Shown piece by piece: positions 795 to 4,891 of a DNA stretch of 4,891 bases. Numbering within the stretch: the stretch's first letter is position 1; each line of letters starts with the position of its first letter. The notes under the pieces are model-generated. The model did not search any database, was not told the origin of the DNA, and saw only the letters and a program-made list of their open reading frames with translations. Made by a program: the position numbers and the translations under genes. Source of the stretch: a virus (taxonomy: Duplodnaviria > Heunggongvirae > Uroviricota > Caudoviricetes); IMG/VR virus record IMGVR_UViG_2585427789_000012. The stretch is one strand, 5' to 3'.

Positions 795-2609
795 TTAATT
801 TTTGCTGTCGTCATTTGTGACCGATGCACATGATGGCATCCAGTCTTCTGAATCCTCTGTCAGTGTCACATTTGAACGCAAACCGTGCTTCGTTTTCCGT
901 TTTATATACTCCCTGCCATATTCCGCCATTGCCCCCGGCATATCTTTACCGAAGCGCGTCAGTGTTACAGGTTTACCGAATCCGTGTGCCCTCATATATG
1001 CCAGATAGGCGTGATAAAGATACCTGCGCGGACTGAACGGAATAATTTCGGCATTACCCACTAACAGACCATCACACATTACCGACGACATGAGATAGCC
1101 ACAGAAGTCCACCAGCGAATCGCCCTCGCGTTTTATCACCAGAGCTTCTTCTGATTTCTGCTGCTCATACAGCAGGCGTTTAGCTTCGTCCTGGTCAGAA
1201 AAACGAGTAAGCAGATGGCGAATCACAACCGCCAGCTCTCCTTCTATTTTTTCTGCCAGCATGGGGTCGCGCTCGTTCTCCGGTACAACCTCCGAAAAAT
1301 TGAATATCACCCGACGACGTGAGATCCCCCCGCTGCGGTCACTGAATGACATGGCGTTATTGTTCACCGCCAGCACGACCGCCTGAATGCGTGTTGAGTA
1401 GGGGGCTTTATGCTTCGGGTCGATTGCCACCTTGTCACCGCCTGTAATAGCCTTAATTCCTGCGCCATCACCAGCGTAGCGGGTCATATCCGGCATGATA
1501 ATCAGCGAAAAGCCAACCACTAACGCGCGTTCCCTTGCATCTTCCAGCGCCTTCATGCTTGCCGATACTGTGTTGGCCTTACCCGCCAGCATGGTGCAAA
1601 TCTCCGCCATCACGCTTTTACCACTTCCCCCTGGACCTGTTACCTCAATGAATAACTGCCAGTCGTACCGGTTCGCCAGCACCATGAATAATGCAGCCAG
1701 CACGCGATCCGTCTTGCGGTCATTCTCTGCCACCGAGCAGCGTAACCACTTCCAGAAATTCGGCGCATGTGTTGCCAGCGTTTCCCCCTCTGCTGGTGGG
1801 CTGAAAGGTAATTCACTGGCAATTAACAACCAGTCGTTTTTGTTATGCTCCCGAAAATTACCTGTTCTGGTATCAAATACCCCGTTACTGAATCCAATCA
1901 GGTTACGGGCTGTATTCCCCATTACAGGCAAACTTAACTTCATGGTATCGACCGCCGATTTAATGGCGTTCTGCGAATAGCTGATCTCCGCATCAATGAA
2001 AATCTGCGCCATAGCACGCTGTAACTCTTTATCCTGAATCGGCTCCCATACAACGCCGTTGTAATGGTGAACAGTGTCAGAGTCGGCATGAATCGCCAGT
2101 TCACCGCCATAATGTGCCAGGAGAACTTCGCCGCGCTGGCTTGCTCCCATCTGGTTAAGCGCCAGTGGTGCGGCGCTGTCTTCTGTTTTTTTCTTAACAG
2201 GAAGCTGAATCACCAGACCATCAGAAAGATTCTGGCGCTCACGGGCCAGATATTCGCGCCAGTTCTGCACCTCCTGGCCGTGCATACCCTCAGGATAAAA
2301 ATTTGCATCCTGTACGCCTGCCGCCGCCAGCTTCTGACCAATCGCCTTTATCATTACTGGCGCAAGATATCCGGCCCTGAATATGCGCACGGATTTTCTG
2401 CCTTCCGGCACAATTTGCAGCTTATCCAGTTCGGATAACTGCTGCTCCCCAAGCCACACAGGAGGCTCATTATCTCCGGCCATACGCGCGTCATGTTCCT
2501 GCCATTGTTTTGCGTGTGACCAGGCATCACTACCCGCAAAAATAATGACTTCTGTTTCTTTGTGTTTTATGCCGCGTGACTGCTGTTTTACGTTCGGTGC
2601 CAGTTTCAT
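795..2609 (-). CDS. P4 alpha-family replication protein (D5_N-like region plus SF3-type P-loop NTPase; 'phage/plasmid primase, P4 family' C-terminal type), 604 aa
   Basis: Walker A VTGPGGSGKS near residue 325, followed by ITGGDKVAIDPKHK...NNNAMSFSDRSGGISRRRVIFNF, which is typical of P4-alpha/D5 helicase cores. SD AGGGG lies 6 nt upstream and the ATG overlaps the upstream stop (ATGA at 2606-2609). The first ~300 residues contain no Cys, so no zinc ribbon is present. Confidence 0.88.
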   Translation of the reverse strand: MKLAPNVKQQSRGIKHKETEVIIFAGSDAWSHAKQWQEHDARMAGDNEPPVWLGEQQLSELDKLQIVPEGRKSVRIFRAGYLAPVMIKAIGQKLAAAGVQDANFYPEGMHGQEVQNWREYLARERQNLSDGLVIQLPVKKKTEDSAAPLALNQMGASQRGEVLLAHYGGELAIHADSDTVHHYNGVVWEPIQDKELQRAMAQIFIDAEISYSQNAIKSAVDTMKLSLPVMGNTARNLIGFSNGVFDTRTGNFREHNKNDWLLIASELPFSPPAEGETLATHAPNFWKWLRCSVAENDRKTDRVLAALFMVLANRYDWQLFIEVTGPGGSGKSVMAEICTMLAGKANTVSASMKALEDARERALVVGFSLIIMPDMTRYAGDGAGIKAITGGDKVAIDPKHKAPYSTRIQAVVLAVNNNAMSFSDRSGGISRRRVIFNFSEVVPENERDPMLAEKIEGELAVVIRHLLTRFSDQDEAKRLLYEQQKSEEALVIKREGDSLVDFCGYLMSSVMCDGLLVGNAEIIPFSPRRYLYHAYLAYMRAHGFGKPVTLTRFGKDMPGAMAEYGREYIKRKTKHGLRSNVTLTEDSEDWMPSCASVTNDDSKN

Positions 2610-2905
2610 TTTTTACCCCTGAATCCGTTAATCATGGTTTTCAGCTTCTGGATGTTTGCCCGTGCCCTGGCGTTGCTGGTGGACACGTTATGCGGCGCGG
2701 TCTGTACCAGAGAAAAATCACGCCGGAACTGATAAACAGGCATCACGCAATCATATTCGTAACCTTCACGGCGGTAGGTTACGCGCCGTTCTTCCACGTC
2801 CTTAATCATTACCGTGCCGCCGTACTGGTCGCGGTAAATATCGCCGCGCGTAAATTTAGGGTGAGTGTTGCCACTGGCAGTTAAGCCAGAATATTTAAGT
2901 TTCAT
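2606..2905 (-). CDS. Hypothetical protein, 99 aa, translationally coupled to the replication gene
   Basis: ATG at 2905 with SD GGAG 10 nt upstream; stop overlaps the alpha-like start. No family recognised. Confidence 0.6.
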   Translation of the reverse strand: MKLKYSGLTASGNTHPKFTRGDIYRDQYGGTVMIKDVEERRVTYRREGYEYDCVMPVYQFRRDFSLVQTAPHNVSTSNARARANIQKLKTMINGFRGKK

Positions 2906-2910
2906 TATTT

Positions 2911-3144
2911 TTATTCTCCGGTGTGCTGTTCTTTATATCTGTCGTGCAATAGATCTATTTCTTGCAGTTCCATTATTACAGGCTCAAGAAGCGTTATTAA
3001 TGCCGTGGCAATTCTTGATTTTTGTTTGTCGCGTTCATTGTCGCCAAGTGTTTCAAGCCATATGCGCAATATTTCCAGCATGTTTTCACTGTGAGAAAGT
3101 GCAAGAAATGCGCGGCCTATTGTTTCGTGGTAAATATCACGCAT
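2911..3144 (-). CDS. Hypothetical protein, 77 aa (predicted helical)
   Basis: ATG at 3144 with SD GAGGA 8 nt upstream; it overlaps the stop of the upstream ORF by 8 nt (3137-3144). Its stop at 2911-2913 is 5 nt from the next start. Confidence 0.6.
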   Translation of the reverse strand: MRDIYHETIGRAFLALSHSENMLEILRIWLETLGDNERDKQKSRIATALITLLEPVIMELQEIDLLHDRYKEQHTGE

Positions 3145-3397
3145 GGCTTACATCCTCAGGAAATTTTCTTCTATAACGCGCCTCTGCCACATATTCCGCA
3201 TAATCGGCGGCGATATTCAGTACATCAAGCCCCGTTGATTTATATTCTCTCGTGGAAAGTAAGAAAAAAGCCGCTCTAATAAGCTCTGGCATTGACGAAA
3301 GCGCATCAGCCGCATCATCAGGAACGCCGGAAAATTCCTGTTTCAGGGAATTAAAACGATCATCACGCATAACCCCCCCCATTTTCACAATCAGCAA
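3137..3397 (-). CDS. Hypothetical protein; 86 aa from the TTG at 3397, more likely 77 aa from the ATG at 3370 (alternative ATG at 3382)
   Basis: The ATG at 3370 gives the same 8-nt ATGCGTGA start/stop overlap seen at 3137-3144 and is preceded by the G8 tract (3373-3380 on the minus strand) acting as an SD-like element. The N-terminus is therefore ambiguous. Confidence 0.55.
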   Translation of the reverse strand: MLIVKMGGVMRDDRFNSLKQEFSGVPDDAADALSSMPELIRAAFFLLSTREYKSTGLDVLNIAADYAEYVAEARYRRKFPEDVSHA

Positions 3398-3602
3398 TCA
3401 GGATGGCTTTAGCCTCATTCAGCGCCATATCAGCACTAAATTGCATAAGAGCCAGTGAGTGAGGAACGAAAGCCCCGGTATATTCTGTTTCGCTGGTGGC
3501 GTGCTTATGCGCCTTGTCTGCGATAACAGAAATATCAATCAGCGCGTGCATCAGCGTTTTGATGGCTTCGGCGGCTGCGTCCGGTGTGGTTTTATTGTGC
3601 AT
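3363..3602 (-). CDS. Hypothetical protein, 79 aa
   Basis: ATG at 3602 with SD-like GGGGGA 6-7 nt upstream; it overlaps the stop of the upstream gene by 11 nt. The C-terminal codons run through the G8 homopolymer. Confidence 0.6.
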   Translation of the reverse strand: MHNKTTPDAAAEAIKTLMHALIDISVIADKAHKHATSETEYTGAFVPHSLALMQFSADMALNEAKAILIADCENGGGYA

Positions 3603-3798
3603 AGGTTTCCCCCTGGCGAATACGGGCGGCGAATACCATCACGCAGCCATCAGGAGATTGCTGACGCGCTTCCTGTTCGCTGGTGGCCTCAATGGTAATC
3701 ACGCGCGGTTGTGCCGTGCTCAGGGCGATAAAACGCCAGATGTATTTATTCAGGTTGTACGAGTCCCGCCCTTGCGGGTGTCTGGTATAATTTCTCAT
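3592..3798 (-). CDS. Small protein, 68 aa, first gene of the leftward operon; possibly Icd-like (host cell-division inhibitor family)
   Basis: ATG at 3798 with SD GAGG at 5-nt spacing. It is the C-terminal 68 codons of the 382-aa track ORF (MRNYTRHPQGRDSYNLNKYIWRFIALSTAQPRVITIEATSEQEARQQSPDGCVMVFAARIRQGETYAQ). The Icd-like label is from recalled annotations of P4-like prophages and is not verified. Confidence 0.55.
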   Translation of the reverse strand: MRNYTRHPQGRDSYNLNKYIWRFIALSTAQPRVITIEATSEQEARQQSPDGCVMVFAARIRQGETYAQ

Positions 3799-3905
3799 AG
3801 CTGCCTCGATACTTCTGCTATCGTTGGTGGTTAGACGCCCTGCATGTGTTGCGAGCACTGCGGGGCGTTGCTTAATTTGAGTGACAAAACTCAAACTGTG
3901 CGCAC

Positions 3906-3935
3906 AGATTAAAATCATGTGTGCGCACATGTCAA
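3906..3935 (-). promoter_or_regulatory. Candidate leftward early promoter (-35 TTGACA at 3935-3930; -10 TAATCT at 3911-3906, 18-bp spacer)
   Basis: Perfect -35 hexamer on the minus strand with a moderate -10; predicted start near 3899, giving a ~100-nt leader before the ATG at 3798. Confidence 0.4.
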
Positions 3936-3938
3936 TAC

Positions 3939-3967
3939 TTAACATCTCATTTTTTTTGCTGTATTGT
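3939..3967 (+). promoter_or_regulatory. Candidate rightward promoter (-35 TTAACA at 3939-3944; -10 TATTGT at 3962-3967, 17-bp spacer)
   Basis: Sigma70-like hexamers read by eye, positioned divergently from the leftward promoter and upstream of the ATG at 4004. Confidence 0.3.
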
Positions 3968-4003
3968 GTGCGCCCATAAAGTCCATTTAAGTGAGGTGCA
4001 TCA

Positions 4004-4201
4004 ATGTCTAGCGGTAACACAAACAACAAATCAGCAAAGAAAAATATTCGATTCCCACATGAGCTTATAGATGGGATTGATGCCAGCGTTGAACAAGAAA
4101 AATTAACTAATCCTAGTGCTAATTTTTCCGCATGGGTCTTAGATGCCTGTGGACGCAAATTAAAATATGAACAGCGCCGGAAGGCCAAAGAATCAGAATA
4201 A
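4004..4201 (+). CDS. Small DNA-binding protein, 65 aa; putative ribbon-helix-helix (CopG/Arc/ParD-like) regulator
   Basis: SD AGGT 6 nt upstream of the ATG. KKNIRFPHELIDGIDASVEQEKLTNPSANFSAWVLDA fits the RHH pattern of an N-terminal beta-strand followed by two helices. It is divergent from the early operon and next to the palindromic operators. Confidence 0.5.
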   Translation: MSSGNTNNKSAKKNIRFPHELIDGIDASVEQEKLTNPSANFSAWVLDACGRKLKYEQRRKAKESE

Positions 4202-4243
4202 TCACTATCAGCGCCGTGGTGTGAGTAACTACGGCGCATTGCT

Positions 4244-4432
4244 ATGCAGGGCAACACAATGACCGATAAAGAATTGACCAAAACATTATCACCGACACGG
4301 AAAAGACGGCGCAGAAAGATAGAGCATGAATCAGAAAGATTCGCACCTTGTTCGTTTGCTCTTGAGAAATTCCTTAAAGAGCGCAGGAAAAAACTCTCGT
4401 TGCAAACCTTGGAACGAACCAAATCTGACTGA
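4244..4432 (+). CDS. Hypothetical very basic small protein, 62 aa (or 57 aa from the ATG at 4259)
   Basis: ORF containing TRKRRRRK; weak SD for the 4244 start, AGGG 9 nt upstream of the 4259 start. A terminator follows. Coding status is uncertain. Confidence 0.3.
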   Translation: MQGNTMTDKELTKTLSPTRKRRRRKIEHESERFAPCSFALEKFLKERRKKLSLQTLERTKSD

Positions 4433-4498
4433 TCACATTGCCCACCAGCCGCAAATGTGGCATTGTTGGTGATGCTTTTGTTTTCCCTTGTTCCCACT

Positions 4499-4527
4499 GG
4501 CGACCCTTTTGCGGTCGCCTTTGTTTT
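4499..4527 (+). terminator. Rho-independent terminator (stem GGCGACC/GGTCGCC, 7-nt loop, TTTGTTTT tail)
   Basis: Perfect 7-bp GC-rich stem at 4499-4505 and 4513-4519, followed by a U-tract at 4520-4527. A weaker bulged hairpin with a U-rich tail precedes it at 4443-4484. The reverse complement has no U-tract, so it is + strand specific. Confidence 0.65.
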
Positions 4528-4565
4528 GCCTGTTATCCGGCAATAGTGGCGCTTCACCACACGGT

Positions 4566-4574
4566 TGATATAAT
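4566..4574 (+). promoter_or_regulatory. Extended -10 promoter element TGATATAAT
   Basis: Perfect TATAAT at 4569-4574 with TG at 4566-4567; no good -35, which extended -10 promoters can lack. Predicted start near 4581. Confidence 0.4.
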
Positions 4575-4580
4575 TCCCCT

Positions 4581-4651
4581 GCACTGATCCATTTTTTTCG
4601 CAGCAGGTTAATTGTTCAGAAAGGCGGTTCCTTATCGGGGCCGCTTTTTTT
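4581..4651 (+). ncRNA. Candidate ~70-nt small RNA (from the extended -10 promoter to an intrinsic terminator)
   Basis: Predicted start near 4581. Terminator hairpin GCGGTTCC (4624-4631), loop TTATC, GGGGCCGC (4637-4644; two G-U pairs), then T7 (4645-4651). No ORF of note lies between them. Confidence 0.3.
4624..4651 (+). terminator. Rho-independent terminator (8-bp stem, 5-nt loop, T7 tail)
   Basis: Stem GCGGTTCC/GGGGCCGC with two wobble pairs, followed by TTTTTTT at 4645-4651. Confidence 0.55.
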
Positions 4652-4891
4652 ATGCCTGAAAATACCCGATAACATGGCTTTTTAGTTTCACCAGGACGAA
4701 CGAAGCCCCGCCCCTGTTCGGGCGTATATCCAGTATTCATGGTTAGATCTCTGTGTTAGTGGATGGGTGGCGGCGGTGCGCCGCCAGCCTGATTAGTGAA
4801 CTGCCTCGCGGCTGTCCTTCCATGCCAGAACTTCGGATAAAGACCAGCCAACGGAACGACCGCCGAGTTTACGCCGTGATGGGAATTGTCC

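Follow-up and report, generated by a model that had tools for sequence, protein, structure and literature searches.

An Icd/Kil-family gene at the head of a satellite replication operon in Escherichia coli and two putative routes to its expression

Genes of the Icd/Kil family have been described in the left operon of the satellite P4 and in the immI operon of phages P1 and P7, and with these systems we compare here a 68-codon open reading frame (ORF) at positions 3592-3798 (minus strand) of a 4,891-nucleotide stretch of viral DNA (IMG/VR record IMGVR_UViG_2585427789_000012), which as a whole is referred to below as the window. In P4, the left operon runs from the promoter PLE through seqA and cI, the gene of CI RNA, to the nested genes kil and eta and on to epsilon and the alpha primase. 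The eta ORF (214 aa; 8168-8812 of our P4 locus, L011) begins within ORF88, the alpA homologue, continues across seqA and cI, and has kil as its terminal part. According to the summary of Forti et al. 1999 given in PMC10111431, eta is translated only from an upstream late promoter, its translation prevents termination, and the 'cell killing' protein Kil (PMC10111431) is a truncated, cell-killing form of Eta. The immI operon of P1 and P7 consists of c4, icd and ant1/2. P1 Icd blocks Z-ring formation, and its residues 12-51, the minimal FtsZ-binding core, are sufficient for growth inhibition, filamentation and interaction with FtsZ (Zhao et al. 2025, PMC11897509). Kil of lambda, Gp0.4 of T7 and Hdi of T5 are also small early division blockers, which is the function we infer for the window protein, but they are unrelated to it in sequence and fold, being helix-turn-helix (HTH) hairpins (PMC11897509) as opposed to the beta-beta-alpha-beta arrangement of the Icd type.

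Among known systems, the nearest counterpart is P4 kil/eta and not P1 immI. As in P4, the Icd-family ORF of the window is the first translated gene of its operon and makes up the 3' part of a longer ORF that sets out at or next to the alpA homologue in the same frame; a primase of the P4/D5 type closes the operon, and both elements lead a satellite lifestyle. P4 has an isrK-like seqA and a C4-type CI RNA between promoter and kil, whereas the window has neither; the long ORF of the window (382 codons) instead crosses features that P4 does not have, namely an opposite-strand unit, formed by a YlcI/YnfO-family gene and a small ORF (orf62), and divergent promoters accompanied by palindromic operators. 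The island to which the window belongs carries capsid and terminase genes of the type found in phage-inducible chromosomal islands that form capsids (cfPICIs), where P4 has sid, delta and psu. With P1 the window shares a homologous Icd core, an icd gene that is the first protein cistron, and coupling to the next gene. P1, however, has the c4 RNA with its a and b target sites, whereas the window lacks a c4 RNA and its downstream gene has no antirepressor match; and control by the C1 operator Op51 and by C4 in P1 contrasts with a divergent protein gene and operators, as predicted, in the window. An earlier note on this DNA had likened the gene to P1 icd as the first gene of its operon, a parallel that holds for the first protein cistron but not for the first gene, as the c4 RNA gene precedes icd in P1. 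In its regulatory layout, the window represents a variation on the designs of P4 and P1.

We consider it reasonably probable (about 0.6) that an Icd/Kil protein heads the replication operon of a cfPICI and can be reached by two routes, its own repressible promoter and read-through from alpA. Judging from sequence and predicted fold, the most likely role of the protein would be to arrest division of the host upon activation of the satellite.

The Icd-like protein and its family

The minus-strand ORF, as read from the sequence, starts with an ATG at 3798-3796, comprises 68 sense codons and ends with a TAA at 3594-3592. A Shine-Dalgarno (SD) sequence, GAGG (3804-3807, minus strand), lies 5 nt 5' of the ATG, and this GAGG-N5-ATG start motif is present in 79 of 80 related IMG/VR loci. 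Across 49 distinct related sequences, the ratio of nonsynonymous to synonymous polymorphism (pN/pS) is 0.17 in the frame of the ORF compared to 2.4-2.5 in the two other frames, and variable sites number 9, 10 and 25 at the first, second and third codon positions. Purifying selection is strong on codons 19-62 (pN/pS 0.078). The ORF is genuine beyond chance, and the 68-aa gene claimed in the earlier note is confirmed by its ATG, SD sequence, stop codon and frame-specific pN/pS. Codons 1-18 behave differently, with a pN/pS of 2.47 and nearly frozen synonymous sites (pS 0.018), which suggests that they are constrained at the level of nucleic acid (RNA or DNA) rather than protein. This 54-nt segment (3745-3798) contains a GC hairpin, CCCGC-aagg-GCGGG, at 3765-3778. 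The same 54 nt are kept in a sibling island (GCA_032850305.1; locus L010), where they lie upstream of an inserted isrK/C4 cassette.

Residues 19-62 match the NCBIfam model NF033153 (phage_ICD_like) over its full 48 positions with 70.3 bits (E 1e-19), well above the curated cutoff of 25 bits. On reference members the same model scores 52.6 bits for P1 Icd and 76.1 bits for the P4 kil ORF (65 aa, beginning MATTLTPSHPEF). By this curated model P1 Icd, P4 Kil and the Icd-like proteins of phage-inducible chromosomal islands (PICIs) belong to one family. In PHROGs, a reciprocal link connects the window protein with the P1-Icd family phrog_1426 (E 7.5e-5), while Pfam holds no model for the Icd core. 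At the identical locus on E. coli chromosomes, RefSeq names the product 'host cell division inhibitor Icd-like protein'; the identity of the gene is in this sense already known from public annotation, and the tentative placement in the Icd-like family made in the earlier note was right by both the profile score and the RefSeq name. By every sequence feature that could be tested, the window protein is a member of the Icd/Kil family.

Residues 19-61 of the window protein align with residues 12-51 of P1 Icd, and the alignment is unambiguous in spite of low identity. The core motif of the family, [FY]xWRF ... E.EAR ... P ... F.AR, is present in the window protein, which has Y/F-I-W-R-F, E-x-E-A-R, P-D-G and F-x-A-R in common with P1 Icd; in a family sample that includes P1, ten columns are invariant (W21, R22, F23, E41, E43, A44, P49, F56, A58 and R59). 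Two of these, R22 and R59, align with P1 Icd R15 and R49, which lie at the FtsZ interface in an AlphaFold3 model (PMC11897509). An AlphaFold model of the window protein, built on 21 sequences, has a disordered N-terminus followed by a confident beta-beta-alpha-beta core with strands at 19-25, 32-38 and 54-61, a helix at 41-46 and a predicted local distance difference test score of 85-90. Residues 12-51 of P1 Icd have been described, also on the basis of prediction, as three strands and one small helix (PMC11897509), so the two cores have the same predicted elements. A fold search against the viral models of BFVD returned an Icd-like protein as the best match and nothing significant besides this one protein.

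The promoter, the operators and the long frame from alpA

About 100 nt upstream of the icd-like ATG lies a putative sigma-70 promoter of the operon (3906-3935, minus strand), with a perfect -35 element TTGACA (3935-3930), an 18-nt spacer and a -10 element TAATCT (3911-3906). The leader between this promoter and the ATG contains no other plausible ORF, and the earlier description of the gene as the first cistron after the leftward promoter holds. The 205-bp interval between the icd-like gene (3798) and ylcI/ynfO (4004) contains back-to-back promoters, the rightward one being a promoter-like site called by the scanner at 3939-3967 (plus strand). Three operator-like palindromes are distributed over this region. 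Two copies of TGTGCGCACA (family D1, inverted repeat I2) are located at the predicted leftward start (3897-3906) and in the spacer between the leftward -35 and -10 elements (3920-3929), and a third copy, TGTGCGCCCA, covers the rightward -10 and +1 positions (3967-3976). A TTGAC-type -35 element at the same distance and the same layout of palindromes recur in every related module, and the same control plan is found in 8 loci from other genomes and in the 80 IMG/VR loci.

The divergent gene (4004-4201, plus strand) encodes a 65-aa protein of the YlcI/YnfO family (NF041551, 59 bits; DUF3950; phrog_949). In each related module, a module-specific YlcI-like protein is paired with module-specific GTG...CAC repeats, which is the pattern expected of repressor/operator pairs with distinct immunity specificities. 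The YlcI/YnfO-family protein is therefore probably, as far as sequence can tell, the repressor of the operon acting through the TGTGCGCACA sites. Its assignment to the ribbon-helix-helix class is only suggestive, and sequence searches of the PDB with the YlcI-like protein gave no match. On the first of the two proposed routes, the icd-like gene would be reached from its own promoter, from which the short form would be made, and the divergent protein would repress this promoter by binding to the three palindromes. Downstream of ylcI lies a conserved small ORF of 62 codons without RefSeq annotation (orf62; 4244-4432, plus strand), which encodes a basic protein starting MQGNTMTDKELTKTL, is found in 55 of the 80 related loci and has no family match. 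Its pN/pS of 0.37 compares, weakly, with 0.66 for the antisense frame, and one copy contains an internal stop. A terminator-like hairpin at 4499-4519 (plus strand), identified in a promoter/terminator scan, ends the rightward ylcI-orf62 unit.

Upstream of its ATG the icd-like frame remains open for another 314 codons, to just after alpA, giving a nested ORF of 382 codons (3592-4740, minus strand) that starts 52 nt after the alpA-like stop codon and runs antisense through orf62, ylcI/ynfO, the divergent promoters and the leader. Between 3799 and 4740, stop codons number 0, 21 and 19 in the three frames of the minus strand. A long ORF spans the distance from alpA to icd in all 80 IMG/VR loci, which have among them 49 different upstream sequences of 140 nt and distances between alpA and icd that range from 450 to 1270 nt: in 67 of them the icd frame itself is open back to the region of the alpA stop codon, and in the other 13 an ORF of 275-401 codons in another frame ends 22 nt before the icd ATG. 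A scan of genome contigs yielded no more than seven loci. Of seven loci from other Enterobacterales (about 50-60% protein identity), six, from E. ruysiae, Cedecea, Pantoea, Klebsiella, Hafnia and Enterobacter, have 223-289 in-frame open codons; in the remaining one, from Brenneria, a different frame is open for 171 codons, up to the icd ATG. This pattern across relatives is decisive for the conservation of the long frame. The 'protein' sequences encoded by the upstream parts are unrelated between modules; a pN/pS estimate for codons 1-100 of the long ORF was precluded by the small number of variants, three in all and nearly identical.

On the second proposed route, the icd-like gene would be reached by read-through from the int/alpA unit upstream, and translation of the 382-codon ORF would keep ribosomes on the read-through transcript across the antisense repressor unit and the leader. 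By analogy with P4 eta and the late PLL transcript, this ribosome cover may protect the transcript from premature termination. We further propose, as a possible but tentative generalisation, that in the Icd satellites of Enterobacterales the 0.5-1.3 kb from alpA to icd are kept in their entirety as a translation 'bridge', whose amino-acid sequence is irrelevant and which serves to bypass the repressor of the island. The interval would then be held translatable in spite of an opposite-strand repressor operon, a terminator, two divergent promoters and a structured leader; a polymerase that has set out from the int/alpA promoter on induction would be trailed by ribosomes, which would guard the antisense read-through transcript against Rho and against structures in the leader; and the polymerase would be delivered, or translation coupled, to icd and the replication genes.

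Several observations weigh against the two-route reading. Direct similarity to P1 Icd amounts to about 36-37% identity over 43 residues and is insignificant in tblastn (E about 3), so the homology to P1 Icd rests on the profile models; Y24 of P1 Icd, a predicted interface residue, is not conserved, and the Icd-FtsZ interface is itself an AlphaFold3 prediction only (PMC11897509). The leftward -10 element is weak, with 3 of 6 consensus matches, which is why the consensus scanner missed this promoter, and the YlcI-like protein reaches an hhalign probability of 24% with Arc. As regards the long frame, its first ATG (4740) has no SD sequence, its upstream part has no family match in PHROGs or NCBIfam, 37-62% of synonymous shuffles of ylcI and orf62 keep the frame open across these genes, and related loci share ancestry and are not independent trials. 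The last two points speak for the view that the open frame is a functionless by-product, a shadow of the opposite-strand genes together with shared ancestry, as does the register of the long ORF, which has its third codon positions in common with ylcI and orf62. We regard this as unlikely, because the non-coding pieces at 3799-4003 (205 nt) and 4433-4740 (308 nt) stay open in only 1.6-5.6% and 0.1-1% of shuffles, respectively, because the frame is open across many modules with intervals of widely different length and in six of the seven loci from other genera, and because an ORF that has lost its phase with icd still spans the interval and stops 22 nt short of the ATG.

It is quite unlikely that the real product is an Eta-like protein of 382 aa, in which the 68-aa form would be the C-terminal domain and the short gene an annotation artefact. 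Such a product would agree with the frame being open from 4740 to 3592, with its openness in 67 of the 80 IMG/VR loci and in the majority of those from other genera, and with the many 'proteins' of 200-640 aa in public databases that end in an Icd domain. In the 13 out-of-phase loci, however, the fusion of long ORF and icd is evidently dispensable; the SD sequence and ATG of the short form are conserved; and the upstream parts, wholly different between modules and without family match, show no coding constraint in the 45 nt 5' of the icd-like ATG (pN/pS 1.1 in the long-ORF frame). In addition, the promoter of the operon lies inside the long ORF, a bona fide gene occupies the strand opposite to it, and both P1 Icd, with 73 aa, and P4 Kil, with 65 aa, act as short proteins. 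The possibility that long ORF calls are a selection artefact because they dominate a search of 50% representatives was rejected, as the unbiased DNA loci have the same property. RefSeq gives the Icd-like coding sequence (CDS) 117 codons from position 3945 and annotates 4197-4740 (minus strand) as a pseudogene, 'incomplete hypothetical protein'; both are pieces of the single 382-codon frame. The 117-aa start at 3945, called by the annotation pipeline PGAP, was rejected for promoter-proximal transcripts since it lies upstream of the -35 box.

Regulatory alternatives, the leader and the isrK-C4 cassette

The second cistron of the operon is a 79-aa ORF (3363-3602, minus strand) whose ATG at 3602 overlaps the 3' end of the icd-like gene by 11 nt, a geometry that, going by sequence, is that of translational coupling. 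Its product matches only phrog_5146/2512, which are without assigned function, and family profile searches and PHROGs gave no Ant, KilA or Bro match. We consider it quite improbable that the main job of the icd-like gene is a regulatory one, either because its translation opens or couples the downstream genes or because the protein is a transcriptional repressor. The overlap, which is conserved in the sibling island L010, would fit such a job, as would the P1 record, in which icd is 'apparently required for expression of ant', and the label 'transcriptional repressor' carried by phrog_6196 and phrog_1743. On the other hand, the pN/pS of 0.078 in the core argues for a functional protein, the AlphaFold model contains no DNA-binding fold, and coupling and division inhibition are not mutually exclusive. 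The PHROG label derives most likely from the old P4 'cI gene product' CDS (NP_042040). This CDS, now named 'transcriptional repressor', is a translation across CI RNA and kil.

Between the promoter and the icd-like ATG, the leader is predicted to form a conserved hairpin (3835-3868, minus strand), with a covarying basal stem and a conserved apical GUGC...AACAC, which is followed by CUAACCACCAAC. A second, small hairpin, CGAUA-N7-UAUCG (3807-3823, minus strand), abuts the SD sequence. RNAalifold on the leader found changes on both sides in 6 of 15 pairs, and one module has swapped the whole 3868-3835 hairpin for an unrelated one. The conserved hairpin was rejected as an intrinsic terminator because no U-tract follows it on its 3' side. 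A ProQ/FinO-family protein encoded by the island is a possible partner for the structured leader RNA.

The structured leader pointed out in the earlier note does contain hairpins that are conserved and covary, but they are not C4-like. At E<=1, Rfam matches no C4, c4-a1b1 or isrK in the window, whereas the positive controls are recovered, with C4 (the CI RNA in P4) at 68.8 bits in P1, 74.9 bits in P4 and 77.1 bits in L010, c4-a1b1 in P1 and isrK in P4; the antisense RNA proposed by analogy with P1 was accordingly not found. Permissive Rfam matches in the window were of miRNA type and confined to the iteron region, and we discarded them as spurious products of the GGTGAACAG array described below. 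The leader was still a good lead, as L010 holds isrK and C4 at the junction of codon 18 and the Icd core. L010 shares the leader, the SD sequence, the ATG and the first 18 codons of the window, and then, after ...AAT AAA, contains a 336-nt block (994-1329) without counterpart in the window that comprises isrK (58.5 bits), C4, a2/b2-like sites and a second SD sequence with the ATG that starts the Icd core. Islands of the L010 type resemble the window in their downstream genes (78 aa, 75 aa and DUF4222), in the divergent YlcI-like/operator design and in the long open frame; they differ from it in the isrK-C4-icd cassette, in which RefSeq annotates an 'ash family protein' and 'Icd-like'. Of 5426 complete E. 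coli genomes, 834 contain a cassette of this type. As L010 carries the cassette at a junction where the window has none, sequence comparison marks the isrK/C4 RNA switch as a swappable module of these islands that is missing from this copy. Recombination seems to favour the position immediately in front of [FY]IWRF. In the E. ruysiae locus (L003), about 70 codons are inserted in frame at the junction of N-terminus and Icd core (2790-3190), and the insertion resembles a second, divergent Icd-like domain (KFIYTFLAV...VHVAADTLVDAC...).

Highly improbable, finally, is a persistence of C4-type control, by an RNA supplied in trans from a co-resident P4-like element or PICI or by a divergent version hidden in the leader: the leader sequence CUAACCACCAACGAUAG partly resembles the a2/b2 target region of the sibling (UUCUCACC ... 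CCCAACGAUAAAGGAGG), the L010-type C4 cassette is present in the 834 E. coli genomes mentioned above, and satellites often co-occur in one genome (PMC10085698), but, besides the negative Rfam result, complementarity to the one sibling C4 examined amounts by eye to 5-6 nt per site, an insertion of 11 nt, itself folding into a hairpin, breaks up the site next to the SD sequence, and no matching C4 was identified.

The isrK and C4 genes have also left traces in protein annotation. The Pfam model PF10554 (Phage_ASH) matches residues 272-366 of P0169, which correspond to the DNA of isrK and C4 (L010 1036-1321; P4, L011 8168-8584), and RefSeq entries for hundreds of E. coli genomes place the label 'ash family protein' on isrK/C4 DNA. 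It therefore seems that the 'Ash protein family' arose by translating RNA genes located within an eta-like ORF. This label (with Phage_ASH), the 'transcriptional repressor' label in PHROGs and the over-long calls of Icd-like CDSs are likely annotation artefacts.

The satellite island and what the arrangement may mean

With 100% identity, the window corresponds to a portion of a RefSeq island of about 15 kb that is inserted in preA of E. coli E300010 (NZ_CM128601.1; locus L001, 1732056-1757156). In RefSeq order, the island begins with int, an alpA-like HTH gene, YlcI/YnfO on the opposite strand and the Icd-like gene, continues with three small ORFs, DUF4222, the D5/P4-type primase, a further small ORF, a single-stranded DNA-binding protein (SSB) gene and ProQ/FinO, and ends with the major capsid protein, an HK97 protease, portal, connector, HNH, TerS and TerL. 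The SSB gene is a pseudogene with an internal stop. According to the RefSeq annotation of this identical island, the gene set by which the cfPICI family is defined (PMC10085698) is complete, with int, regulator, primase, capsid, protease, portal, connector, HNH, TerS and TerL, and tail and lysis genes are absent. By gene content the window lies in a capsid-forming PICI-type satellite of E. coli. An Icd-like protein was noted in most Enterobacter satellites by a recent survey (PMC13612085).

Within the window, the distal gene of the operon is the primase-helicase (795-2609, minus strand), which matches Pfam D5_N, DUF5906 and Pox_D5 above their cutoffs and TIGR01613 with 96 bits, below the cutoff of 108.7. 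The AT-rich region between its stop codon (795) and the next gene (507) contains a dense array of GGTGAACAG (558-783) with at least 10 copies in both orientations, which is probably the replication origin of the island. At the other end lies the 3' part of the gene for the alpA-like HTH regulator (4793-4891, minus strand; identified from RefSeq at the identical locus), which is cut by the end of the window. A GC-rich hairpin without U-tract, GGCGGCG-CAC-CGCCGCC (4769-4785, minus strand), lies between the alpA-like stop codon (4793) and the ATG at 4740. In L003, Rfam detects an int-alpA RNA (RF02996, 49.8 bits) further upstream, at 75-143; the equivalent region is outside the window.

Identifying the gene as such adds little, since public annotation already calls it Icd-like. 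The region conserved in the whole family, however, is the FtsZ-binding region of P1 Icd, and division arrest is therefore probably, on this sequence evidence, a common early step of satellite induction. The near-identical islands, of which some carry an RNA switch and others a protein repressor with operators, form a natural pair for the comparison of immunity designs. If the proposed translation bridge is true, it would generalise the mechanism of P4 eta to satellites without CI RNA, and the conservation of a long frame across an antisense repressor unit suggests that translation-dependent read-through may be a general route of induction.

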